From contig JBGQJI010000053.1 in assembly GCA_041498975.1 (NCBI GenBank), positions 1 through 15,422 on the forward strand: DNA of 15,422 nt. Reading direction: 5' to 3'. Both the position numbers and the translations under genes were made by a program. Origin of the DNA: Candidatus Methylomirabilis sp. GTDB lineage: Bacteria > Methylomirabilota > Methylomirabilia > Methylomirabilales > Methylomirabilaceae. Positions 1 to 15,422 of this stretch are shown here, one piece after another; positions within the stretch are counted from its first letter, which is position 1, and each line of letters begins with the position of its first letter. Below the pieces are notes generated by a model that saw only the letters and a program-made list of their open reading frames with translations, was not told where the DNA came from and did no database searches.

Positions 1-952
1 AATAGGTGATCTCCCCGTCGCTCTTCACGAGAACGCGGTCTTTGTCGTCGCCAAAGGCGGTGGAGCGAAACCAGAGCGCTCCCTCCTGCTCGTACAGGAT
101 ACCTCGCGCTCTCAATGCCTCAATCGCCCGCTCTGGCTCGCCGCGTTCCCGGAGGGCACGTTCGCTGAACCAATTGTCAAAGGTGACCCCGTACGCCTCG
201 AGCGCCGCCCGCTGCCAGCCGAGGATCCGCTCGACCGCAAAGCGGCCCAATCGCTCCCGGCGCTCCCGTTCCGGGGCGCTCAGCGCCTCTTGCCCCTGCG
301 TCTTCAGAAACTCGCGCGCAAGCTCGATCAGGTATTCGCCGGGGTAGGCCTCCTCGGGCATCGGGCACTCCTCGCCCAGGAGCTGCCGACAGCGCACCTC
401 CATGGCCAAGGCGAGGGTTCGGAACTGGTTTCCGGCATCGTTCACATAGTACTCGCGGTACGGTCGATACCCCACCGCCTCCAGGAGGCGGACGATGGCG
501 TCACCCACGGCTGCGGCCCTGGCGCTGACGACGACTAGCGGGCCGGTCGGATTCGCGCTGACGAACTCCACGAGCACCCGGTGCCCCCCGCCGACATCAG
601 CCCTCCCGTACGTGGACCCCGCCTTCAGGATCCCCTGAACCACGCCCCGCCAAAACGCCTTCGCGACAAAAAAGTTGAGGTAGCCCGCCCCGGCCACCTC
701 CACGCGATCAACCAGATCGTGCGGGAGTTGCGCGCAGGCGGCAACCTGTTCGGCAAGCTCGTGCGGCCTGCGTTTCAGCGCCTTCGCAAGGCCGAAGGCC
801 AATGTGGTCGAGAGGTCACCGAAGGCCGCGTCGGGAGGATATTCCCACGAAACCTCCGTGGGCACAATCGGAGGCAGGCCGGTTTCGAAGCCAGCCTTCT
901 GCACGGCGGCGAGCAGCGCGCCTGCCAAGTCAGCTTTCAGGCGGGCGATCAT
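1..952 (-). CDS. argS: Arginyl-tRNA synthetase, N-terminal ~317 aa (runs off the left edge; not in the ORF track)
   Basis: Manual translation from ATG at 952: MIARLKADLAG...FGDLSTTLAF...EVAGAGYLNFF...VEFVSANPTGPL...GDAIVRLL...EYYVNDAGNQ...YPGEYL...GALWFRSTAFGDDKDRVLVKSDGEITY, all diagnostic ArgRS segments. Confidence 0.96.
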   Translation of the reverse strand, partial: MIARLKADLAGALLAAVQKAGFETGLPPIVPTEVSWEYPPDAAFGDLSTTLAFGLAKALKRRPHELAEQVAACAQLPHDLVDRVEVAGAGYLNFFVAKAFWRGVVQGILKAGSTYGRADVGGGHRVLVEFVSANPTGPLVVVSARAAAVGDAIVRLLEAVGYRPYREYYVNDAGNQFRTLALAMEVRCRQLLGEECPMPEEAYPGEYLIELAREFLKTQGQEALSAPERERRERLGRFAVERILGWQRAALEAYGVTFDNWFSERALRERGEPERAIEALRARGILYEQEGALWFRSTAFGDDKDRVLVKSDGEITY

Positions 953-969
953 GTGGCCAGCGATTTCTC

Positions 970-1018
970 TTGCATTCCGACATCAACCTTTTATAATGCC
1001 CCACCAGACACGATCCAA
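970..1018. promoter_or_regulatory. Overlapping divergent sigma70-like promoters (small protein on +, argS on -)
   Basis: Plus strand: TTGCAT(970-975)-16 nt-TATAAT(992-997). Minus strand: TTGGAT(1018-1013)-17 nt-TATAAA(995-990). AT-rich island in GC-rich DNA. Confidence 0.6.
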
Positions 1019-1038
1019 TTCCTCGTGGAGAGACCACA

Positions 1039-1275
1039 GTGCGAGAGAAAGACCGAGAGCTCAGACGCAGGCAGAAACGGCGTGAGGAGGCCAGAAAGGC
1101 CAGGCACAGGGCTGCGTTGGCATCCAGGCCTGCCCCGCGGCCTCCGTCGGAAAAGCCGAAGCCAAAGAAACGAGCGGAGCCCGCGGCAGCAGAAAAGCGG
1201 CCCAAACCCAAGACCGCGGTATCCACGCCTGCGGCAAGCCCGCCCCCAGGGGAGACCCCGCCCCAGTCGAAGTGA
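1039..1275 (+). CDS. Small basic protein (78 aa) with an Arg/Lys-rich helical N-terminus and Pro/Lys/Ala-rich tail; N-terminus reminiscent of DUF6800
   Basis: GGAG SD upstream of GTG 1039, a good promoter upstream, and it fills the gap between argS and the phosphomutase. MREKDRELRRRQKRREE resembles the ERxRELRRRRxR start of DUF6800 proteins (recollection, unverified). Confidence 0.6.
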   Translation: MREKDRELRRRQKRREEARKARHRAALASRPAPRPPSEKPKPKKRAEPAAAEKRPKPKTAVSTPAASPPPGETPPQSK

Positions 1276-1292
1276 GCGACCACGCGAAAGGC

Positions 1293-1329
1293 TTGGTATG
1301 TGGCCGACCATCAGGGTCGCCCTCACCAA
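1293..1329. repeat. Degenerate REP-like palindrome / possible terminator hairpin
   Basis: TTGGT...CGACC-atcag-GGTCG...ACCAA inverted repeat just after the small-protein stop; resembles the GTAG-type element at 7435-7463. Confidence 0.4.
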
Positions 1330-1369
1330 TAGCCTTTTCCCCATCGGGACGAGCGCGTTGGTTTGTGCT

Positions 1370-1407
1370 TCCTCACTCTTGAGGGAGAGCGCCGGGGTGA
1401 GGGTGTT
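1370..1407 (-). repeat. CCCTCACCCC/CTCTCCC-type intergenic palindromic repeat, copy 1
   Basis: Reverse complement aacaccctcaccccggcgctctccctcaagagtgagga matches 8914-8951 at 29/38 positions. Confidence 0.6.
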
Positions 1408-1422
1408 GAGCCCGCTTGTGGA

Positions 1423-2901
1423 TCACCCAGGCTGAGGCAGCTTGCACACCCTGGCCGCGTACGCTTTCCCCCAATCGAGCAACCGGGAGACCTGATCGAC
1501 GGTCTGCGCCTCGGCGTAAAGGCGAAGTACCGGCTCGGTCCCTGATGGCCGCATCAAAAGCCAGCTTCCATCCTCGGCGACCAACTTCACCCCGTCCAAG
1601 GTCTGAACCTCTTTCACGTGCAGGCCCTCGAAACCGGCCGGCGGTTCGGCGCCGATTCGCCTGCCGACCTCCAACGCCTCTTCTACCCCGGCCAGCTTCA
1701 GGTCCAGGCGCCGATAGAAATGCGGCCCAACCTCGGCTTCCAACCCCTTGAGGAGCGCAGCTAGCGTCTTCTCCTCGGTCGCGAGAGCCTCCAGCAGCAG
1801 CAAAGCGCTTAGGATTCCATCCCGCTCAGGAATATGACCGGCAACCCCGATTCCGCCGCTCTCCTCTCCCCCGATCAGGAACGGCTCCTCCCGAATGACC
1901 TCGGCAATGTGCTTGAACCCGATCGGGGTCACCGTAAGCGGCAGGCCGTAGGTGGCCGCTAACCGGTCAATCATCATGGTGGTGGAGAACGTCTTGACCA
2001 CCATCCCGGCAAGGCCTCGCCTGGTCACCAGGTGCCGCAACAGCAGTGCAAAGATCTGGTGCGGGGTGACGTAGGAGCCGTTCTCATCGATCGCGGCCAG
2101 GCGATCGCCGTCACCGTCAAACGCCAGCCCGATCGTCCTCGAATCGCCCAGGGCCTTCATCCCTGCCACCAGCTCGCCGAGGTGCCCGGGCAGCGGCTCC
2201 GGGGGCACTCCCCCGAACCATGGGTTGACCTCTCCATGGATCTCCTCGACATCCAGCCCGAAGTCCCGAAGCAGAGTCGCCACAAAGCCCTGGGTCGCCC
2301 CGTACATCGGGTCGATGATCACGTGAATGCGCGACCGGGTGATACGCTCCACGTTGACCAGGGCGCGCAGCCGCTCACAATACTGCGGAAGGGGATCGAA
2401 CGGCCCGATCGCGCCTCCGGCTGTGGGGGGCACACGGGAAGGAACGGCTTCATGCCGAACGTCGGGATCGCCGGCGTTGCGCCGCACCTCTGCCTCGATC
2501 TGGTCCGTCAATCTCGCCGTCGCCGGGCCGCCGTCGGCCATGCGGACCTTCAGCCCGTTATAGCTGGGAGGATTGTGGCTCGCGGTGATCATCAGGCCGC
2601 CCTGCGCGGCGAGAAGAGGGACAGACCATGCCAAAACCGGGGTGGGAACGTGGGAAGCCGTCACGCAAACGTCTAGGCCTTCGGCGGCAAGGACCTCGGC
2701 CGCTTCGAGCGCAAACAGAGGGGATAGGAAGCGCGTATCGTGGCCGACGGCGAATAGCGGCCGGTGGCGATCAGGATGGATGGCCTGGAAGGCCGCCGCG
2801 ATGGCCCTGGCAGCCAGTCGAACGCCATCAAAGGTGAAGTCCCTGGCAATGACCCCGCGCCATCCGTCCGTCCCGAACCGGATCTGCAGCGGCGCAGGCA
2901 T
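1423..2901 (-). CDS. Phosphoglucomutase/phosphomannomutase family alpha-D-phosphohexomutase
   Basis: FGTDGWRG, GHDTR, phospho-Ser motif TASHNP, metal loop FDGDGDR, sugar loop GGEESGG, RPSGTEP. Confidence 0.95.
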   Translation of the reverse strand: MPAPLQIRFGTDGWRGVIARDFTFDGVRLAARAIAAAFQAIHPDRHRPLFAVGHDTRFLSPLFALEAAEVLAAEGLDVCVTASHVPTPVLAWSVPLLAAQGGLMITASHNPPSYNGLKVRMADGGPATARLTDQIEAEVRRNAGDPDVRHEAVPSRVPPTAGGAIGPFDPLPQYCERLRALVNVERITRSRIHVIIDPMYGATQGFVATLLRDFGLDVEEIHGEVNPWFGGVPPEPLPGHLGELVAGMKALGDSRTIGLAFDGDGDRLAAIDENGSYVTPHQIFALLLRHLVTRRGLAGMVVKTFSTTMMIDRLAATYGLPLTVTPIGFKHIAEVIREEPFLIGGEESGGIGVAGHIPERDGILSALLLLEALATEEKTLAALLKGLEAEVGPHFYRRLDLKLAGVEEALEVGRRIGAEPPAGFEGLHVKEVQTLDGVKLVAEDGSWLLMRPSGTEPVLRLYAEAQTVDQVSRLLDWGKAYAARVCKLPQPG

Positions 2902-2938: not shown

Positions 2939-3277
2939 TCATTTCACTAATGGATAGCCTTGCTTCCACCAGGCGATGGTCCCACCTTCCAGGTTGTAGA
3001 GCTGTGTCCTGCCGATAGCGGCCGCGACCTCGCAGGCCACTGCGCTCCGCACCCCCTCAGCGCACACGAAAATGATGCCGTCCTGCAGCAGCAGCTCCCG
3101 AGGACGGTTCATGAGTGTACCAAGGGGGATGTGCACAGCGTTGGGGATATGTCCCTGGCTCCACTCCGCCGGCTCGCGTACGTCAACCACAACCACGCCG
3201 CCCTTCTCAATCATCTGCTTGGCCGTCTCGGCGCCGATACGCTCGAACGGGTCCCGAACGTCCTGTTTCGACTCCAT
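2939..3277 (-). CDS. Single-domain rhodanese-like sulfurtransferase (112 aa)
   Basis: VDVREPAEW..GHIPNAVHIPL, active loop CAEGVRS, NLEGGTIAW. Start set at ATG 3277 behind the AGGAGG SD. Confidence 0.92.
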   Translation of the reverse strand: MESKQDVRDPFERIGAETAKQMIEKGGVVVVDVREPAEWSQGHIPNAVHIPLGTLMNRPRELLLQDGIIFVCAEGVRSAVACEVAAAIGRTQLYNLEGGTIAWWKQGYPLVK

Positions 3278-3362
3278 CGTTTTCCTCCTGAACACCCACC
3301 GGTACAACTCCCCCCTCAAAGCGCGGGAGGTATCAAGATTTCGCGCATTCAATCGTCCCGTC

Positions 3363-3392
3363 ATCATAGCCCACATTGCCGCTGCCCTTCAA
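3363..3392 (-). promoter_or_regulatory. Putative sigma70 promoter of the rhodanese-phosphomutase operon
   Basis: TTGAAG(3392-3387)-18 nt-TATGAT(3368-3363). Confidence 0.5.
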
Positions 3393-5150: not shown

Positions 5151-6320
5151 ATGGGCCTTGCAAGGCTGGCGATCTTGAGCCTCATGGCGGCATCGGTTGG
5201 ATACTGGCTGCTCTGCCTCCTCGGCGCGCTGAAATTCCTCTCAAAGCGGCCCACAGAGCGTCCGGAGGGCGCGCCGCCGGTAACGATCCTGAAGCCTGTC
5301 AGGGGCCTGGACCCGGACCTTGCAGAGAACTGCCGCGGCTTTTGCCGCCAGGACTATCCGGCCTACGAGGTGATCTTCGGCGTGGCCGACCCTCAGGACC
5401 CTGCGATGCCGGTGCTACAGCGCGTCCTGCAGGAATCGCCCGGCGGCCGGCACCGGCTCGTAATCGGGCCTGAGAGCTATGGGCCGAACCGCAAGATCAG
5501 CCTGCTGCAGCAGATGCTTCCCTTTGCGACCCACGAGATCGTGATCATCAGCGACAGCGACGTCAGCGTCGGACCCGACTATCTGCGCCACATCGCCCCA
5601 CCGTTCCTCGATCCGACGGTCGGCCTGGTCACCTGCCTCTATCGCGGAGACGGCGCAGAGGGCTTCGCCGCTCGCCTCGAGGAATGGGCCATCGACGCCG
5701 CCTTCGCGCCGTCTGTGATGGCCGCCTATGCGGTTGAAGGAGTCGCCTTCGCATTCGGCTCCACCCTCGCCCTCCGCCGCAGCATCGTGGAGAAGGCCGG
5801 CGGCTTCACCCCGTTTGCCGACCTCCTGGCAGACGACTACCACCTGGCCCTGGAAGCCCGGCGACAGGGGTATCGGCTGCTCCTCTCCGACTACCCTGTT
5901 GCCTGTGTCCTGGGGCGGCCACGGTTCTCCGAGGTATTCGGCCGCCTCGTCCGCTGGACCAGGACCAACCGTGCCTCCCGACCAATCGGCTACCTCCTCT
6001 CCGGGATCAGCCATGGCACGATCTTCTCAGTGCTCTTCCTGTTCCTCGACCGCTTCTCGGCCACAGCCCTGACCGCCGCCGCTGCCACGATCGGGGTCAG
6101 GGCTGCCGCAGCGTATGTCGTTGATGCCTTCATCCTCAAGTCCCGACATGCCGCCGCTCACCTGATGCTCTTGCTGCCTGGGGATCTCGTGAGCTTTCTC
6201 GCGTGGGCTCTGAGCTTTACAGGAAAACGAATCCGCTGGCGCGGCACCCTCTACCGGATCGGCGATGGCGGCCGGCTGATCGAGCTGCGCGAGGCCGAAC
6301 CTTCCTGCAGGTCCCGGTAG
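5151..6320 (+). CDS. hpnI: Hopanoid biosynthesis-associated glycosyltransferase (GT2/GT21, ceramide glucosyltransferase-like)
   Basis: N-terminal TM helix, ILKPVRG, NRKI, SDSD (DxD), LADDY, RLVRW, C-terminal TM helices and WRG. Adjacent to hpnK and hpnD. Start at ATG 5151 behind AGGAGG. Confidence 0.85.
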   Translation: MGLARLAILSLMAASVGYWLLCLLGALKFLSKRPTERPEGAPPVTILKPVRGLDPDLAENCRGFCRQDYPAYEVIFGVADPQDPAMPVLQRVLQESPGGRHRLVIGPESYGPNRKISLLQQMLPFATHEIVIISDSDVSVGPDYLRHIAPPFLDPTVGLVTCLYRGDGAEGFAARLEEWAIDAAFAPSVMAAYAVEGVAFAFGSTLALRRSIVEKAGGFTPFADLLADDYHLALEARRQGYRLLLSDYPVACVLGRPRFSEVFGRLVRWTRTNRASRPIGYLLSGISHGTIFSVLFLFLDRFSATALTAAAATIGVRAAAAYVVDAFILKSRHAAAHLMLLLPGDLVSFLAWALSFTGKRIRWRGTLYRIGDGGRLIELREAEPSCRSR

Positions 6321-7156
6321 GAGGTCAACACGATCCCTTGAGCCGCCACCCCCTTCAGCACGCGTTCACTCGTCAGGGCCTCGAGCTCCTGGCGGTGCCG
6401 ATAAGTCGGGGTCCAACGCTCAAGCTGCGGACAGGGGGGCAGACCCACATGACAGTACCACTCGACCAGCCCGTCTCGAATCCTGGGCAAGAGGCCCAGC
6501 AGGAAGGCCTCGTTCATGTCACCGCTTTGAAGCAGCCCATAGACGCGGTCGGGCGCGCGGATCCCCGCCCTTGCAAGTCGTCCCTTGGCGTACCGGGACA
6601 ATAATCCGAAGATGACGGCATGAGACAGCTTATAGCCGAGTCGCTTTGTATCCAGGGCCAGAGTCGATCGAAGGTCGTCGAGCGGGAGGCGCATGGCGTG
6701 AATGCGATACTGGCTCGCCAGCTCCAGGAGGATCGTGAGGACGGTCGGGTGGAGGTGAAGGTTCAAGTGTCCATCCAGGTGCGAAAGGACAAGGCCGGTG
6801 GCAGCAAATGCGGCGAGCTGGGCCTCGATCTCGCGGCGCAGTTGGCCCAGGAGTGATCTGACGAAGAAATACCGGAAGCCGGCGCGAACCGGGCTCCTGC
6901 AGAAGTTTCCTTCGGCATCCACGAGACCTGGAATCCGGTGGGGGGCGAGCGTCGCACGGCCCTGGCACAGAACAAGGTGCAGCCCGACGGCGAGCGTCGG
7001 GTGCGCCTTGGCCAGCGCGACTGCCTCTGCGGCGGCGGACCCGTTCACCATCAGGCTCGCGCTCGTGAGCAGGCCATGCTCGTGGGCTTTTAAGATCGCC
7101 TGGTTGACCGCCGGCGACAGCCCGAAATCATCCCCCGTCACAATCAGACGTTTCAT
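6251..7156 (-). CDS. hpnK: Hopanoid biosynthesis-associated deacetylase (YdjC/ChbG family)
   Basis: MKRLIVTGDDFG, ASLMV, VGLHLVL, EIEAQL..F, HLDGHLNLHLHP, GLLQSG.M, EWYCH. Hopanoid gene context. Confidence 0.88.
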   Translation of the reverse strand: MKRLIVTGDDFGLSPAVNQAILKAHEHGLLTSASLMVNGSAAAEAVALAKAHPTLAVGLHLVLCQGRATLAPHRIPGLVDAEGNFCRSPVRAGFRYFFVRSLLGQLRREIEAQLAAFAATGLVLSHLDGHLNLHLHPTVLTILLELASQYRIHAMRLPLDDLRSTLALDTKRLGYKLSHAVIFGLLSRYAKGRLARAGIRAPDRVYGLLQSGDMNEAFLLGLLPRIRDGLVEWYCHVGLPPCPQLERWTPTYRHRQELEALTSERVLKGVAAQGIVLTSYRDLQEGSASRSSISRPPSPIR

Positions 7157-7184
7157 GTCCCCATCATCTCCACCCAAAACAATG

Positions 7185-7234
7185 AACCCGAGCAGGGCCT
7201 CTGCGCCTTCAGCAGATCAACCCTCGCCCGGGCT
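7185..7234 (-). terminator. Long RNA hairpin upstream of the hpnK RBS (terminator or attenuator candidate)
   Basis: Minus strand pairs AGCCCGGGC/GCTCGGGTT, AGGGTT/GGCCCT and TCTGC/GCAGA. The G-U pairs work only on this strand. Followed by CATTGTTTT. Confidence 0.45.
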
Positions 7235-7249
7235 TTTGATGCCTCTCAG

Positions 7250-7339
7250 TCATTGCCGGGCCAGCTTCTTCAATTCAGCGCTCGAACATACCGGAATCAA
7301 CCTCGGATGTCGCCGATCGAGCAGCAATTCGTCATCCAC
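7250..7339 (-). CDS. Possible 29-aa leader or small protein (MDDELLLDRRHPRLIPVCSSAELKKLARQ)
   Basis: GGAGG SD 7 nt before GTG 7339; lies between a promoter and the hairpin preceding hpnK. Confidence 0.4.
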   Translation of the reverse strand: MDDELLLDRRHPRLIPVCSSAELKKLARQ

Positions 7340-7392
7340 ACGACATCCTCCTCTCCTGAGGAGGCAATGCTCGGAGGCTCAGGATGGTCTGC

Positions 7393-7422
7393 AGCGTACA
7401 CGAAGGGATTCGCGCCTGTCAA
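7393..7422 (-). promoter_or_regulatory. Putative sigma70 promoter for the small ORF and hpnK
   Basis: TTGACA(7422-7417)-18 nt-TACGCT(7398-7393). Confidence 0.55.
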
Positions 7423-7434
7423 TCGTAAAGCCGG

Positions 7435-7463
7435 GTAGGCGCGACCGGGCCGGCCGCCCCTAC
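7435..7463. repeat. GTAG-family REP-like palindrome
   Basis: GTAGGCGCGACCGG-G-CCGGCCGCCCCTAC: an imperfect palindrome with GTAG/CTAC ends, between two divergent promoters. Confidence 0.6.
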
Positions 7464-7466
7464 AAG

Positions 7467-7495
7467 TTGCCTCGGAGCGGTGATCCCTCTATAAT
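7467..7495 (+). promoter_or_regulatory. Sigma70 promoter of hpnD
   Basis: TTGCCT(7467-7472)-17 nt-TATAAT(7490-7495). Confidence 0.7.
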
Positions 7496-7502
7496 ACCGG
7501 TC

Positions 7503-8360
7503 ATGAACCGGTCAGATGACCTTCGAACCGTCAGCCGCAAGGTCACGAAAGGGAGCGGCTCGAACTTCTACTATGCCTTCCTCTTCCTCCCCAAGCCGAA
7601 ACGCGAGGCGATCTACGCCGTCTATGCCTTCTGCCGATTGAGTGACGACTTGGTGGACGAGGCGAAGGCCGGAGGAGATCCCGCCGAGGCGCTTTCTCGA
7701 TGGCGGAAGCAACTCGATACCTACTTCCAGGAGAACATTGGCCCCCCCGTCATCGCCGCAGTGGGCCAGGCGGCGCGCCGGTTCGACATCCCGAAGGTCT
7801 ACTTTGAGGAACTGCTCAACGGCATGGAAATGGATCTTGCCCGCGCCAGATATGCGACATTTGGGGAGCTGTACCCATACTGTTACCGGGTGGCATCGGT
7901 GGTGGGCCTCATTTGCATCGAGATCTTCGGATATACGAACCCGAAGACGAAGACGTACGCCGAGCAACTGGGCATCGCCTTTCAGCTCACCAACATCCTT
8001 CGGGATCTCGCGGTCGATGCAAAGCGGGGACGGATCTATCTCCCACAAGATGAACTCAGGAAGTTCGGGTACTCTGAAGAGGAGCTGCTTGCCGGCAGGT
8101 ACAACGACGCCTTCGTGGAGCTGATGCGGTTTCAGTGTGAGCGAGCTCGGGATTATTTTCGGGCGGCCTCGGCGGCGTTGCCGCCGGATGATAAGCGCTC
8201 GCTTCTGGCCGCAGAGATCATGCGGGCCATCTACTACCGCCTCTTGCTCAAGATCGAGCAACGACAATACAATGTCTTTCGGGGCGGTATCGCGCTCGGA
8301 AAGTCCCGGAAGCTCTTCCTGGCCAGCGGCCTCTGGCTACGGTCGGCGCTGACCTCATAG
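7503..8360 (+). CDS. hpnD: Presqualene diphosphate synthase (squalene/phytoene synthase family)
   Basis: SGSNFYYAFLFLP, YAFCRLSDDLVD, GMEMDL, YCYRVASVVG, QLTNILRD, GRIYLP. True start is ATG 7503; the 520-aa ORF-track version extends over hpnK. Confidence 0.88.
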   Translation: MNRSDDLRTVSRKVTKGSGSNFYYAFLFLPKPKREAIYAVYAFCRLSDDLVDEAKAGGDPAEALSRWRKQLDTYFQENIGPPVIAAVGQAARRFDIPKVYFEELLNGMEMDLARARYATFGELYPYCYRVASVVGLICIEIFGYTNPKTKTYAEQLGIAFQLTNILRDLAVDAKRGRIYLPQDELRKFGYSEEELLAGRYNDAFVELMRFQCERARDYFRAASAALPPDDKRSLLAAEIMRAIYYRLLLKIEQRQYNVFRGGIALGKSRKLFLASGLWLRSALTS

Positions 8361-10850: not shown

Positions 10851-11429
10851 TCACTGCGATGGCCTCCACCCGGCCCCCCTGGCCAGCAAGAGGATCTTCG
10901 CCGACGCCTCAAGGGTCGTGGTGAACTTCAGAGCCTCCTCGAGGCTTCCACCGGCCGCGAAACTCCCATGCCCTTTGACGAGGACAGCGCGGTGTGCTTG
11001 GAGGAGCGACGAGGCCCGGTCGGCGACTTCGGCGGAGGCCACGACGTTCTTCGCGGCAATCACCGGAACCCTCCCAAGGATGTAGCCTCCCTCGGAATCG
11101 GCCGGGACGATCGCCTCGTCGAGCAGCGACAGCGCGACCGCCGACGGCGGGTGAGCATGGAGGATCGCTTGCGCGGAGGTCGCACGGTAGATCGCCAGGT
11201 GAACCGGCAGCTCCATCGACGCTTTCGCGTGCGGGGGTTCACGTCGCGAGAGCGAGGTTTCAACAACGTCCTCTGCTTCGAGATGGCCCAGCATCGAGCC
11301 GGTCCTGGTGATCCAGACCCGCTCGCCCGTCCGGAGGCTGATGTTGCCGGCGTGCGACGTGATCAGGCCCAGATGATACAAATCCCGCCCCACCCACTGA
11401 AACGCCTCGAAGATCCTCGATCGCTCCAT
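10851..11429 (-). CDS. Class II aldolase/adducin family protein (fuculose-1-phosphate aldolase-like)
   Basis: HAGNISLR, ASMELPVH, HAH and KGHG zinc ligands. Start uncertain (11429, 11447 or 11453). Confidence 0.9.
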   Translation of the reverse strand: MERSRIFEAFQWVGRDLYHLGLITSHAGNISLRTGERVWITRTGSMLGHLEAEDVVETSLSRREPPHAKASMELPVHLAIYRATSAQAILHAHPPSAVALSLLDEAIVPADSEGGYILGRVPVIAAKNVVASAEVADRASSLLQAHRAVLVKGHGSFAAGGSLEEALKFTTTLEASAKILLLARGAGWRPSQ

Positions 11430-11433
11430 CAGG

Positions 11434-12300
11434 TCATCTCGCCGCATCGGCAAGGCGCGCGATAATCGGGGGTATCAGCGACGAGGCCAGGTCTGCTCTC
11501 GAGCCGCCTCCAAGGACGACCAGGAGGCGACCGCCGCAGACCTGACCCGACAGTGCAAGAGTCAGGCCGACGAGCCCGTTGTAGCACGCGGCGGTGAGGC
11601 CGAGGTCGCCGTAGTCGCCCCGATGTCCGTCGAATCCAAAATACCAGACGAGCAGGTCCGGGCAGAAGGTCCCGGCCCGTGCGGCGAGCGCCGCCTCCGC
11701 AGCCTCAAGGTACACCTCGTCACTTCTGGCCCCGGCTTCCAAGCAGCGGCGATAGACCGCCACGTCCACTTTTGTCCCATCGGCAGACGCATAATCGCTC
11801 CCGCACAGACAGACGTGTAAGACCGCCGGGTCGTCGCGGTAAATGTCCCGGGTTCCGTCGCCATGGTGCGCGTCGGTGTCCAATATGGCCACCCGCCGCA
11901 CCCCGTGCATTTCCCTGAGTCGCTCTATGGCGATCGCGACGTCGTTGAAGCAGCAGTAGCCGCCAAAAAAATCCCGCCCGGCATGGTGTCCCCCGGCGCC
12001 GATGAAAGCAAAGGCGTTGATCAGTTCCCCGAGCCAGATTCGCTCGGCCGCCGCAACCACCCCTCCGACCGAGTGGCGCGCGGTCGATCAGAGGGGGTCC
12101 TTTGCGACCTCGCGGATCAGGTCGGCGGTGTGAACCTTCAGGAGAAGCTCATCGGAAACCGGCTGGGCCTCGAACAGGACAACCTGGGGGAGAGCGAGGA
12201 GGTCTCCCAGGGCGTCGGGAAATGCGGCCAGGCGCCTTCCCACCGTCAGGTAGCTCCGCCGGGAGAAGCTCGGGTGATAGAAGATCCCGGTCCGCGGCAT
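11434..12300 (-). CDS. Histone deacetylase (HDAC/AcuC/APAH) family protein with in-frame UGA at codon 71; probable selenoprotein (288 aa)
   Basis: ORFs 12088-12324 and 11434-12060 are in one frame separated only by TGA 12090-12088 (…EVAKDPL-U-STARHSVGGVV…). Upstream part has TGIFYHPSF and LLKVHT; downstream part has GGHHAG, GYCCFND, DTDAHHGDGT and FGFDGH. SECIS-like hairpin follows the TGA. Confidence 0.82.
12051..12083 (-). promoter_or_regulatory. Bacterial SECIS-like hairpin of the HDAC-family gene
   Basis: After the UGA: CCGCG-C-GCCACTC-[GGTCGGAG]-GGGTGGT-TGCGG. A 12-bp stem with one bulge and an apical loop beginning GG at +18. Confidence 0.6.
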
Positions 12301-12313
12301 CAGGTTGGGTCGC

Positions 12314-12763
12314 TCAGAGCTCAAGGAGCACCGCCACCTCGTCGCAATGGTAAAACTTGCTGCACTTCAGACAATCTTTCCAGATCTTTTCCGGCAGCTC
12401 GATCTTGTTGACGACCCGGAAGCCCAGACGTTCGAAAAACGCCGTCTTGTACGTCAACGCGAAGACCCGCTTGATCAGGAGGTTCTTCGCCTCCGCGACA
12501 CAGGCCTCGGTCACCGCCCAGCCGATGCCTCTTCCCTCGAACTCCGCCTCGACGGCAAGGGATCGGATCTCCGCCAGGTCCGCCCCGTAGATGAAGAGTG
12601 AACAGGCCCCGGCGACCTGTCCTTCATGCTCAAAGATGTAAAAATCCCTGACCCGCTCGTATAACTCCTGGAGCGTCCGCGGCAAAAGGTCGCCCTTCTG
12701 CGCGTAGAAATTCACCAGCCGCTGAATGGCCGGGACATCGATCGTCCTCGCCTTCCTGACCAC
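12314..12763 (-). CDS. GNAT N-acetyltransferase, short ArgA-like (amino-acid acetyltransferase) type
   Basis: LLPRTLQELYERVRDF, LAEIRSLAV, GRGIG, VFALTY..FF.RLGF, LPEKIWKDCLKC...CDE. Confidence 0.88.
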   Translation of the reverse strand: MVRKARTIDVPAIQRLVNFYAQKGDLLPRTLQELYERVRDFYIFEHEGQVAGACSLFIYGADLAEIRSLAVEAEFEGRGIGWAVTEACVAEAKNLLIKRVFALTYKTAFFERLGFRVVNKIELPEKIWKDCLKCSKFYHCDEVAVLLEL

Positions 12764-12771
12764 GCTCCGCC

Positions 12772-13860
12772 TCAGGCACAGGCCGCCGCCGTTCCCGCCT
12801 TCGACGACGCGGCGAACCCGGCGCCATCGATGGTGACCCGGCCGGGCTGGCCCATCCCACCTTCAAGCGATATCGACAAAGGAAGGAATTGCTGAATCGT
12901 CCAGAGGTTCGTAAGAAGATGCTGGCTCACCCGGGCTGTGGTCAGGACCGAGCGGCCCGGTGCCAACGCCATGAGGATCGCCAGTTGATCGGCCAAGTGG
13001 GAGTCGGTGGCAGCGTCGCCGGCGAGGAACTGAAGCAGCGCGTCCGTCGCCTCATCGGCGACACGTTCGGCGGGCTTGCCACGCTCCCCAAGTGCGCCGA
13101 AGCCTGCGCGGGACCGCTCGAACTCCGCCCACAGGAACAGGGCATCCCCCGGGCAGGCCGCATCGAGCTCCTGGATCTCGATCTCGACCGCCGGGTACCC
13201 GGCCTCTGCAAGACGGCGTCGAACGTGGGCTGCCTGCCGCTCGGCAATCCGTCTCGGCAATCTGGCGATCGCCGAAAGGCCGCGGATGGCCAGCATCTTG
13301 CCGCGATCCGACAGATCGAGCGCCGCGAGCCGCATGGATGGCTGAACAGCGGCTCGGACCTCGCCACCCCCCCTTGGATAGAAACCGGCCCGCTGCACCT
13401 GCCAGGAGGCGAGGACTCCCATTCTGGCAGTGATGGGGAGGAAGACCTCAGACACATAGGGGGCCGACGGACTCCATCGGACGTGGGTCCCGCCCGTCAT
13501 CGTAAGAGAGGACGGCGTTGTCGCGCATGCAAGCGGAGCAAGGATGGTCTGGAAGACCAGGGACAGGGCCCCGGCCGTCCCGACGTCAAATCGACGCGAT
13601 CCTCCAGTGATCGGTCCAGGGCGGAAACGCAGGTGCGGGGAGCCTCGCTCCGCCCCTTGCACCTCCGCGCCGGCGATCTCGGCCAGTGCCCGGACGCAGG
13701 CCAAGTGTTGCGGCTGAAGCCCCGGGTTCTTCCGGCCGCCTCGGATCTTGACGAGCTCGACCGGCCTCCCAAGGATCGCCGAGAATGCGAGGGCTGTCCT
13801 GAGGATCTGCCCGCCGCCCTCCCCATATGAGCCATCGATCGTCAGCACCTCGCCCCTCAT
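12772..13860 (-). CDS. rtcA: RNA 3'-terminal phosphate cyclase
   Basis: IDGSYGEGGGQILR, RKNPGLQPQH, GGTHV, GFYPRGGG, AERVA, and DSHLADQL carrying the adenylated His. Start at 13860 or 13869. Confidence 0.95.
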   Translation of the reverse strand: MRGEVLTIDGSYGEGGGQILRTALAFSAILGRPVELVKIRGGRKNPGLQPQHLACVRALAEIAGAEVQGAERGSPHLRFRPGPITGGSRRFDVGTAGALSLVFQTILAPLACATTPSSLTMTGGTHVRWSPSAPYVSEVFLPITARMGVLASWQVQRAGFYPRGGGEVRAAVQPSMRLAALDLSDRGKMLAIRGLSAIARLPRRIAERQAAHVRRRLAEAGYPAVEIEIQELDAACPGDALFLWAEFERSRAGFGALGERGKPAERVADEATDALLQFLAGDAATDSHLADQLAILMALAPGRSVLTTARVSQHLLTNLWTIQQFLPLSISLEGGMGQPGRVTIDGAGFAASSKAGTAAACA

Positions 13861-13890
13861 GCTTCGCACCCCGCACTTCGCACCTGGTCC

Positions 13891-14283
13891 CTACGACTTC
13901 TGCTTCCGCGCGACCCGCTCCGAAAACTTTCCCAGATTGACCACATACCGCTCGTTCTGTCCCTCGGCGATCTTCTCTTTCTCATCGTGGGCCTCGAGGT
14001 CGAACAGCAGGCGTCGCCCGTCCACCTCCCTCAGCGTCGCCTTGACCCTCACCGTCATCCCGACCGGGGTGGCGGCAAGATGCTTCAGTGTGACCATGCT
14101 CCCGACGGTGCCCTGCCCCGTCTCCAGGTTCGCGGCCGCCATCATCCGGGCGGCTTCCTCGAACCAGGCGAAGATAATCGGCGTGGCCAGCACGTGGAAC
14201 CCTTCGTTTCCCATCCGATGCGCGGTCACCTCGTCACTTACCAGATGTTCGAGTTCGAAGGTCATCCCGGCCTGCAGGCCCAC
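13891..14283 (-). CDS. Hotdog-fold thioesterase, fluoroacetyl-CoA thioesterase (FlK)-like, copy 1
   Basis: VLATP...WFEEAA, GTVG, KHLAATPVG, DGRRLLF (Thr/Glu/His triad). Start set at GTG 14283 behind GAGGGGAG. Confidence 0.88.
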   Translation of the reverse strand: MGLQAGMTFELEHLVSDEVTAHRMGNEGFHVLATPIIFAWFEEAARMMAAANLETGQGTVGSMVTLKHLAATPVGMTVRVKATLREVDGRRLLFDLEAHDEKEKIAEGQNERYVVNLGKFSERVARKQKS

Positions 14284-14357
14284 CCTCTGTCTCCCCTCAC
14301 AGGAACGCAAGTTGATAAGAAGACCGGCGTGCACTGTGGTCCCTTGCTTCGAAGCGT

Positions 14358-14420: not shown

Positions 14421-14825
14421 TTAGCGAGAGGCCGTGCCTCCGCGCTTCTTTCCAACCTTTTCGTGAAAGCGCGCCAGGTCAACGATGAATCGCTCGTGAT
14501 GGCACTCCCCGATCTTCTCCACTTCATCGAACGCTTCGATCCAGAAGACCAGGCGTCGCCCGTCAATCTGTTTCAGATGGGCTACCACCCGTACTGTGAG
14601 CCCGATGGGGGTGGCTGCCAGGTGCTTCATGTTCACGACACTACCGACCGTTCCCTGCCCTTCGGGCAGGTATTGCTGCGCACCCGCCGTCGCCACCTCC
14701 TCCATCCACTCGACCACGATCGGGGTGGTGAGAACATGGACGATCGGATTACCATGCCGGTCGGATGACTCGGCCTCGGTCACCCGCCGTTCCATCTCAA
14801 ACGTCAGTCCCTCCCGAAGGCTCAT
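14421..14825 (-). CDS. Hotdog-fold thioesterase, FlK-like, copy 2
   Basis: VLTTP...WMEEVA, GTVG, KHLAATPIG, DGRRLVF, HERF. Start at ATG 14825 behind GGAGGAG. Confidence 0.88.
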   Translation of the reverse strand: MSLREGLTFEMERRVTEAESSDRHGNPIVHVLTTPIVVEWMEEVATAGAQQYLPEGQGTVGSVVNMKHLAATPIGLTVRVVAHLKQIDGRRLVFWIEAFDEVEKIGECHHERFIVDLARFHEKVGKKRGGTASR

Positions 14826-14884
14826 CTGCTCCTCCCATCTCATGCGTCTCGCTCGTTGCAGCTTCCGGAACGCGATCTCCGCGC

Positions 14885-14913
14885 CTTGTACCATCCCGGT
14901 TCCAAGGTGTCAA
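14885..14913 (-). promoter_or_regulatory. Putative sigma70 promoter of thioesterase 2
   Basis: TTGACA(14913-14908)-17 nt-TACAAG(14890-14885), with a TGn extension. Confidence 0.5.
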
Positions 14914-14970: not shown

Positions 14971-15000
14971 TTGACAGCCTCCGGTGGGAGCAGCTAGATT
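14971..15000 (+). promoter_or_regulatory. Putative sigma70 promoter of the 2-hydroxyacid dehydrogenase
   Basis: TTGACA(14971-14976)-18 nt-TAGATT(14995-15000). Confidence 0.55.
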
Positions 15001-15057
15001 GAGCCGGTTTTCCTGACCAGACGCCCTTTTGCTGTACCCTTACAGAGGAGCGGAGCG

Positions 15058-15422
15058 CTGAGACCAAAGGTCCTGATCACCCGAAAGGTCTTCAAAGAGT
15101 CGATCGCGTTCGTCGCCGAGCACTGCGACGTCGAAACCAACCAGCGCGACATCCCCTTGACCCCGCGCCAGCTCATCAAGAAACTGCAGGGGAAACAGGG
15201 TGCGATCACGGCGCTCACCGACATCATCTCCGAATCTGTCCTGGCCGGTTGTCCCGACCTCAAGGTCGTCTCCAATGTCGCCGTCGGGTTCAACAACTTC
15301 GACGTCACGGCCGCGACCAGACGCGGGGTCATGATGACCAACACACCTGGCGTCCTCGACGACACCACCGCCGACCTGGCCTGGTGCCTCATCCTGGCCG
15401 CCGGCAGGGGCCTCATCTATGC
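15058..15422 (+). CDS. D-2-hydroxyacid dehydrogenase (glyoxylate/hydroxypyruvate reductase, D-glycerate dehydrogenase type), 5' part; probable CTG start
   Basis: Manual translation: (M)RPKVLITRKVF...LKVVSNVAVGFNNFDV.AATRRGVMMTNTPGVLDDTTADLAWCLILAAGR. Runs off the right edge. Confidence 0.9.
   Translation, partial: MRPKVLITRKVFKESIAFVAEHCDVETNQRDIPLTPRQLIKKLQGKQGAITALTDIISESVLAGCPDLKVVSNVAVGFNNFDVTAATRRGVMMTNTPGVLDDTTADLAWCLILAAGRGLIY

Follow-up and report, generated by a model that had tools for sequence, protein, structure and literature searches.

This report concerns a 15,422-nucleotide stretch of DNA from Candidatus Methylomirabilis sp., a methane-oxidising NC10 bacterium (GenBank assembly GCA_041498975.1, contig JBGQJI010000053.1, forward strand), hereafter the window, and a gene on its minus strand that encodes a histone deacetylase (HDAC)-like protein with an in-frame UGA. 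The coding sequence occupies 11437..12300 (minus), running for 288 codons from an ATG at 12300..12298 to a terminal TGA at 11436..11434. Its sole internal stop is codon 71, a TGA (12090..12088) flanked as KDPL-*-STARHS, and the frame continues across it without a frameshift; the position, the context and the single frame given in the original prediction were reproduced exactly. The listed open reading frames (ORFs) split the gene in two, 12088..12324 and 11434..12060, and the latter yields a 208-aa protein for which gene callers choose a GTG at codon 81 (12058..12060, minus) as the start. The joined 288-aa product matches Pfam PF00850 (Hist_deacetyl) with 148.6 bits (E 3.3e-43, cut-off 27.9), and its N-terminus, MPRTGIFYHPSF, lines up with full-length homologues. 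Downstream of the UGA, at 12051..12083 (minus), is a hairpin that resembles a selenocysteine insertion sequence (SECIS). Based on comparisons of this locus with its relatives, we predict, with a probability of about 0.9, that the gene encodes a selenocysteine (Sec)-containing HDAC-like protein made by SECIS-directed recoding of the UGA. A scan for other TGA-split frames in the window returned just many spurious open frames, as the sequence is 63% G+C.

Homologues were sought among 5.8 billion proteins, and 120 matches were listed. Among the matches listed, full-length relatives (286-332 aa) are 60-68% identical to the joined product, while the closer relatives, at 82-94% identity, are all 207-208 aa long and span no more than the final 72% of the query; above 68% identity there are no full-length proteins. 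The 207-208-aa proteins account for 15 of the 120 matches listed and include the window's own gene call as well as NCBI-sourced entries. These close relatives are short because gene callers stop at the in-frame TGA, and the 208-aa protein is started at codon 81 because the 3' arm of the hairpin holds a GGAGG and then the GTG (12058..12066, minus). The public 207-208-aa gene calls are therefore a systematic misannotation that truncates the protein N-terminally, and the GTG at codon 81 is probably not the true start.

The column of codon 71 is Cys in all 24 full-length homologues aligned, with the consensus DPLCSTAWHS. A separate scan of 185,579 species-representative genomes gave 186 relatives, and the best 80 of these loci were each aligned to the window protein. 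Codon 71 is TGA in 23 of these loci, TGC in 47 and TGT in 10; the window and the 23 TGA loci are referred to here as Sec forms (n=24) and the other 57 loci as Cys forms. The Cys in a DPLCST-like context that the original prediction gave for homologues agrees with both the 24 proteins and the 57 TGC/TGT loci. Trp, Arg and Gly, which it had named as residues that would speak against Sec at position 71, occur in none of the 24 proteins and none of the 80 loci. The TGA loci L001-L006 belong to Ca. Methylomirabilis and close relatives and are 84-88% identical to the window, and the other 17 are from metagenome-assembled genomes (MAGs) labelled Methylomirabilota, 'NC10', Rokuibacteriota or 'uncultured bacterium', at 63-66% identity. 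Several of the TGA loci are groundwater MAGs. The Cys-form orthologues (P0005, P0006 and loci from Thermodesulfobacteriota, Myxococcota-labelled 'Deltaproteobacteria' and Deferrimicrobiaceae) have about 286-312 aa and a full-length identity of 57-68%. They share with the window protein the motifs DPL-C-STA (Cys or Sec), GGHHAGR, FGGYCCFND, DTDAHHGDGTR, WYFGFD.H.GDYGD and LGGGS, but differ from the Sec forms in having TGC or TGT in place of TGA and a weaker downstream fold.

A lone in-frame stop resembles a fresh nonsense mutation when seen in one sequence, and a pseudogene, an assembly error or a genetic code in which TGA specifies Trp or Gly would each account for it. However, the same TGA is present in 23 independent species-level assemblies that show no other defect, and in all 23 it is the single stop within a match of 278-286 codons. 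The few Cys-form matches that contain extra stops are those in which the alignment ran one residue past the end of the gene, beyond its terminal stop, with the exception of L075, in which a TAG at the 9th match position probably reflects an overrun upstream of the true start. Selection was assessed from the ratio of nonsynonymous to synonymous substitution rates (dN/dS, Nei-Gojobori). In the Methylomirabilis group (7 sequences), the codons upstream of the TGA have a median dN/dS of 0.115 and those downstream 0.035, with dS of ~0.9-1.0; over 23 Sec forms (all but L043, which has an indel) the two ratios are 0.184 and 0.131. On these estimates both flanks of the UGA are under purifying selection, which is not expected of a pseudogene. 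As for an altered code, the stops of the 14 Pfam-supported ORFs of the window are TGA in 7 (the HDAC-like gene included), TAG in 6 and TAA in 1. TGA thus ends half of these genes and is not generally reassigned, and the homologues carry Cys at position 71, never Trp or Gly. We regard this group of explanations as effectively refuted.

A stable split gene could likewise show a conserved TGA; in it, translation would stop at UGA 71 to release a 70-aa piece, a GGAGG acting as a Shine-Dalgarno would drive a restart at a GTG at codon 81 or 82 to give the 208-aa piece, and the two would assemble. The GGAGG (nt 25-29; hairpin nucleotides are numbered from the U of the UGA) and the GTG after it are indeed present, 17 of the 24 Sec forms have a GTG as codon 81, and the public 207-208-aa gene calls have the length that such a restart predicts. 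Nevertheless, the break would fall exactly at the codon of the invariant Cys, one base away from TGC or TGT, and it would cut the protein at the start of a helix (residues 74-89) in an AlphaFold2 (AF2) model. The spacing between GGAGG and GTG is 1 nt for codon 81 or 4 nt for codon 82. Further, the remaining 7 of the 24 Sec forms carry GTC as codon 81, and in L051, which reads GTC GTA, neither codon 81 nor codon 82 is a start. The strongest discrimination comes from the codons that a split gene would leave untranslated. Codons 72-80 preserve S-T-A-R-x-S-V-G-G in the Sec forms despite codon changes: Ser72 is encoded by TCN in 10 and AGY in 14, Arg75 by CGN in 15 and AGR in 9, and Thr73 and Ala74 by three codons each. 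Since the amino acids are kept through switches between the TCN and AGY codons of Ser and between the CGN and AGR codons of Arg, codons 72-80 must be translated. The 67 codons 5' of the TGA likewise contain no stop in any of the 24 Sec forms, and their conservation is evident. Taken together, these observations make a split gene very unlikely and favour continuous translation through the UGA.

In the minimum free energy (MFE) fold of the window, computed on the 45-66 nt that start at the UGA, nt 8-12 are paired with nt 36-40 and nt 14-20 with nt 29-35. This gives a 12-bp stem, from which C13 bulges out, and an 8-nt loop, GGUCGGAG, that begins at nt 21, and so the bulged 12-bp hairpin that had been proposed 3' of the UGA was recovered. 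An alternative register of the window has a 5-nt loop, GGUCG, and most of the other Sec forms read C-GUG-G or C-GUC-G here. In the bacterial SECIS (bSECIS) model, as given in a 2026 review (PMC13188914), the loop is 3-9 nt, the upper stem 4-16 bp, the MFE -7.5 kcal/mol or lower and the distance from UGA to loop 16-37 nt, with a G in the first two loop positions within N1-G-[G/U]-N-N2. The window hairpin, with an upper stem of 7 bp, 17 nt between UGA and loop and an MFE of -21.4 kcal/mol, falls inside all of the limits of that model. The original prediction had also warned of a competing hairpin right after the UGA. Such a structure can form in the window, where nt 4-10 and 20-26 make 7 of 7 pairs; however, at -8.1 against -18.9 kcal/mol for the SECIS-like fold it is 10.8 kcal/mol weaker and has negligible ensemble weight. 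It is also not conserved, since all 7 pairs are possible in only 6 of the 24 Sec forms, 6 pairs in 4 and 3-5 pairs in 14. The arrangement is similar to intragenic SECIS elements of the E. coli fdhF type, in that the UGA stands at the Cys of the homologues and is followed by a hairpin with G-U in a small loop. The essential loop bases of E. coli fdhF are G23-U24, one nucleotide further from the UGA than G22-U23 of the window. In contrast to fdhF-type cases, the host here is a metal hydrolase of the HDAC fold and not a thiol oxidoreductase or formate dehydrogenase.

In every one of the 24 Sec forms a hairpin is predicted between about nt 8 and nt 40. Their 48-nt ungapped alignment has invariant columns at C18, U19, C20, G22, U23, G25, G26, G28 and others, and the core common to all of them is CUC / S-G-U-S-G / GRG. 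The apical-loop G22-U23 (12068..12069, minus), the first two bases of the Val78 codon, is invariant in 24/24. The independent TGA-bearing orthologues with a conserved hairpin that the original prediction had asked about therefore exist, in 23 species-level genomes, and all retain the G-U of the apical loop. A hand-drawn structure of 14 pairs (nt 8-21 with nt 25-40, with a 2-nt bulge at nt 34-35) has 81.3% of its cells paired across the Sec forms; none of 500 column shuffles reached this value, and slid controls gave 44-64%. Pair 16:30 occurs as GC in 11, CG in 4 and GU in 3 sequences, and pair 12:36 as CG in 8, GC in 2 and GU in 1. 

The Cys forms serve as a better control for the hairpin, as they encode nearly the same peptide. 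GU is found at nt 22-23 in 24/24 Sec forms and 13/57 Cys forms, and GU together with the 3-bp core (C18-G28/U19-A27/C20-G26) in 24/24 against 4/57. The mean number of pairs formed, of 14, is 11.4 in Sec forms and 7.95 in Cys forms, and the 42 nt that follow codon 71 have mean MFEs of -21.9 and -16.6 kcal/mol, respectively (Mann-Whitney p = 1.4e-9). Compared with synonymous-codon shuffles of each sequence, the Sec forms have a mean z of -1.58 and are negative in 23 of 24. Some of this difference can be traced to individual codons. Codon 78 is Val (GUN, the source of G22-U23) in every Sec form and Ala in 44/57 Cys forms; codon 75 is Arg in every Sec form and Trp in 55/57 Cys forms; and Gly79 is encoded by GGA, whose A27 pairs with U19, in 21/24 Sec forms as opposed to 10/57 Cys forms. 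On this comparison, amino-acid and codon changes of the Sec lineage at positions 75, 78 and 79 build the putative hairpin element. A covariance model made from the 24 hairpins and searched over the window and the 80 loci (761 kb) matched the 24 training sites (by construction), the homologous Cys-form sites at 17-30 bits and, by chance, one site in L028 (E 0.27). This search found the element in no further gene, and so gave no independent SECIS for comparison.

Several observations weigh against a SECIS-directed selenoprotein and must be considered. The window fold (-21.4 kcal/mol) has a z of only -1.0, and 34 of 200 dinucleotide shuffles equal it. By itself it is unexceptional because the stretch is 75% G+C, and thus the significance of the hairpin is drawn from the comparison with relatives and not from the window alone. 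RNAalifold on the 24 Sec forms returned the 3-bp core plus a spurious 3' helix, with zero compensatory pairs; the core alone emerges because the register of the stem varies among sub-clades. The MFE register of the window, with its 8-nt loop, has 69.8% of cells paired across the Sec set, again with a register that varies by sub-clade. For the hand-drawn structure the covariation score is modest, 0.095 versus 0.071 for shuffles and matched by 23 of 500, and double changes are seen in 2 pairs, which is not above shuffles. The predicted hairpin is, accordingly, conserved mainly as sequence and pairing potential, and there is little room for true covariation in bases that also code for a conserved peptide. 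The contrasts between Sec and Cys forms are phylogenetically non-independent, as the Sec forms are essentially one clade. The GGAGG-GTG in the 3' arm could double as a ribosome-binding site. An Rfam gathering scan of the window gave zero matches, a silence that carries no weight against a bSECIS because these elements are too diverse. Finally, neither a tRNA gene nor a sel gene was found in the 15.4-kb window, and a Sec machinery in this genome is presumed from the literature.

That literature does point to a Sec-using lineage. Ca. Methylomirabilis oxyfera is entered in the supplement of Peng et al. 2016 (PMC5029168) as positive for SelD and in both Sec columns, with 6 known selenoproteins. 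The 2026 review mentions a MAG of Methylomirabilota for which 63 selenoprotein genes were predicted (PMC13188914), and a 2026 paper on [NiFeSe] hydrogenases places Sec-type Group 4 hydrogenases in nine phyla, Methylomirabilota among them. The last paper also looks for selC* tRNAs in Sec-using MAG lineages, which brings up the idea that the UGA is recoded to Cys or another standard residue, either by a SelB-dependent Cys tRNA (tRNA-ReC type) or by near-cognate read-through. The hairpin and the conserved TGA would appear identical in that case. Yet there is no evidence for such a tRNA, and the supplement lists the genus with the standard Sec trait (PMC5029168). A UGA with a hairpin would also be a costly way, with no obvious advantage, to specify a Cys that TGC encodes directly. 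We therefore think this form of recoding highly improbable. The assignment of the UGA to Sec in the original prediction is supported by its pairing with Cys, the 23 TGA loci, the conserved hairpin and the Sec trait of the genus. Under SECIS-directed recoding to Sec, the hairpin that starts 8 nt downstream would display the invariant G22-U23 in its apical loop. Acting as a bacterial SECIS, it would recruit SelB and Sec-tRNA(Sec), the hairpin-to-SelB step being an inferred one. The UGA at codon 71 would then be bypassed as a stop, Sec would be inserted where the Cys-form relatives hold their invariant Cys, and a 288-residue selenoprotein of the histone-deacetylase/arginase fold would result.

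The history of the Sec form was examined with a maximum-likelihood tree of 83 rows (the window, the 80 loci, P0005 and P0006, none omitted), which was built by a quick method with SH-aLRT (Shimodaira-Hasegawa-like approximate likelihood ratio test) support only. All 24 Sec forms fall in a single clade with 96% support, and the Cys forms P0005 and P0006 are also inside it. The Sec/Cys label changes twice on the tree, and well-supported branches force one change. L027 is a Cys form from the same phylum. The topology fits a single early Cys-to-Sec change in the Methylomirabilota/Rokubacteria lineage; given such a change, P0005 and P0006 would be either a sister group or a reversion. The Sec form would thus have been derived from a Cys form inside this lineage and then kept across the clade.

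The nearest solved structures by sequence are HDAC6, HDAH and HDAC4 (E 7e-40 to 1e-23). The AF2 model, from a 30-row alignment, has a mean predicted local distance difference test score (pLDDT) of 87 and a predicted template modelling score (pTM) of 0.90, and Foldseek with this model returned HDAH, HDAC4 and HDAC6 CD1 at template modelling (TM) scores of 0.75-0.81 normalised to the query. As modelled, the protein is a member of the PF00850 arginase-deacetylase fold. In an alignment with 24 homologues, H105, H106, D141, D143, H145, D148 and D224 are invariant in the subfamily, as are cysteines 116, 117, 164, 166 and 239. D143, H145, D224, H105 and H106 align with HDAC6 motifs, and C116 aligns with the conserved cysteine of the HDAC G-F-C motif. 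From the HDAC6 alignment and the known active sites of HDACs, we take D143, H145 and D224 to be the metal ligands. The active-site loop 103-115 (GGHHAGRDFFGGY) was modelled at pLDDT <50.

The protein therefore shares with class II zinc deacetylases (HDAC6 CD1/CD2, HDAC4 and the bacterial HDAH/APAH) an aligned His-His pair, an aligned Asp-His-Asp set and a matching fold. In contrast to them it is ~80 residues shorter, has a very short loop before helix 74-89, carries Ser267 at the position of the EGGY Tyr and possesses extra invariant Cys residues. The catalytic Tyr has no counterpart: the GGY of HDAC6 aligns with G265-G266-S267, S267 is invariant in the 24-homologue alignment, and no Tyr is found at position 267 in 22/22 short relatives down to 29% identity. 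Because the catalytic Tyr is replaced by Ser267, a canonical deacetylase mechanism is doubtful, although membership of the fold stands. An exhaustive search of 1.84 billion cluster representatives gave just 61 clusters at E <= 1e-30, and so the close subfamily is small. No NCBIfam model matches the protein. Some sources call the homologues AcuC (acetoin utilisation protein); their names at JGI and NCBI are generic and zero NCBIfam families were matched.

In the AF2 model, residue 71 is at the end of a short turn that precedes helix 74-89; this turn is presumably a much-shortened counterpart of the L2 rim loop of HDAC8. Among 22 aligned short members of the family, Cys at position 71 is confined to the two nearest ones (53% and 48% identity). 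In short relatives further removed (29-44% identity) the residue is mostly Tyr, Phe or Trp, and the aligned residue of HDAC6 CD1 is Phe. We infer that U71 is most likely a redox-active or metal-contacting residue of the active site. HDAC8, according to two papers (PMC6174833, PMC7692948), has a reversible regulatory disulfide between the loop residue C102 and C153, the active-site GFC cysteine. In the window protein C116 aligns with the GFC cysteine, and U71 is in the loop before the equivalent helix. A selenenyl-sulfide between U71 and C116 or C117 would be analogous to C102-C153, and may be offered as a lead only. A bolder proposal, which we consider rather unlikely, is that Cys/Sec71 is catalytic in an unrecognised type of HDAC-fold enzyme that has a Cys-rich metal site and uses a thiol- or selenol-assisted or redox-gated mechanism. 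If this is the case, the whole short family has lost the catalytic Tyr, and this subfamily has put Cys or Sec in place of the aromatic residue (Tyr, Phe or Trp) that its more distant members carry at position 71.

The HDAC-like gene is part of a minus-strand series that reads, in order, two FlK-type thioesterases, RtcA, GNAT, the HDAC-like gene, a class II aldolase and a PpsR-like kinase. The GNAT N-acetyltransferase gene (12314..12763, minus; NF005840, 195 bits) ends 13 nt before the HDAC-like ATG, and upstream of it is rtcA, encoding the RNA 3'-terminal phosphate cyclase RtcA (12772..13869, minus; PF01137, PF05189). Directly downstream is a gene of the class II aldolase family (10851..11453, minus; NF006413, 206.8 bits), whose ATG at 11429..11427 lies 4 nt past the HDAC-like stop and which is adjacent in L001-L006 as well. 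This gene order is confined to Methylomirabilota, and L004 and L005 have it without GNAT. RtcA is upstream on the same strand in 16 of the 23 Sec-form loci other than the window. In 8 Cys-form loci, a weakly Tpt1/KptA-like ORF is directly downstream of the short HDAC-like gene, and 7 of these 8 have a divergent DHH-family gene upstream. In 4 loci the gene immediately upstream is of the PolyA_pol/CCA-adding type, and in L040 and L066 the two genes overlap by 4 nt. Examples of RNA-end neighbour genes next to the short HDAC-like gene are L007:6866-7648, L040:4739-6004 and L013:4613-5641. The presence of RNA-end enzymes beside this gene in three lineages suggests a substrate connected with RNA ends or RNA repair, and not acetyl-lysine; we treat this as a lead only.

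Other genes of the window can be described briefly. The tandem FlK-type hot-dog thioesterases (fluoroacetyl-CoA thioesterase-like, PF22636) are located upstream of RtcA at 13891..14334 and 14421..14894 (minus), and the pair is kept in Methylomirabilota loci. A single-domain rhodanese gene at 2939..3376 (minus) has below-cut-off matches to NCBIfam rhodanese selenoprotein models (NF041203, 39 vs 115 bits; TsoB, 25 bits) and no internal stop. In the 520-aa squalene/phytoene synthase ORF at 6798..8360 (plus) the Pfam match begins at residue 251, and the first ~125 codons overlap the YdjC-like gene at 6251..7177 (minus); the true start is probably much further downstream. The ORFs at 581..1435 (plus, 284 aa) and 14994..15416 (minus, 140 aa) have no Pfam or NCBIfam match.

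Deng et al., in Cell Rep in 2026, reportedly applied deep-Sep to 44,000 MAGs from groundwater and predicted 63 selenoprotein genes in one from Methylomirabilota; this gene may be among their unvalidated candidates. An HDAC-like selenoprotein is unreported in the literature that we found, the main text on deep-Sep included. A bioRxiv paper, 'Actinomarina, resolved', was considered as a prior report, and it mentions acetylornithine deacetylase only. Table 1 of the 2026 review catalogues 119 prokaryotic selenoprotein families and subfamilies (PMC13188914), with no PF00850 and no deacetylase among them, and the words histone, acetoin and AcuC are absent from its text. This agrees with the claim in the original prediction that HDAC proteins are outside the known bacterial selenoprotein families. 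The proposed recoding mechanism is the standard bacterial one, and what is new is the host family, unless it is listed by Deng et al. 2026.

In conclusion, if the prediction is true, the HDAC fold, that of a metal hydrolase, joins a list of prokaryotic selenoproteins that is dominated by thiol oxidoreductases. It would mark residue 71 as functionally critical in an uncharacterised and widespread family of short HDAC-like proteins that are without the canonical catalytic Tyr. It would also correct an annotation error, as the public 208-aa fragments lack the N-terminus, and add to the evidence that Methylomirabilota have large selenoproteomes.

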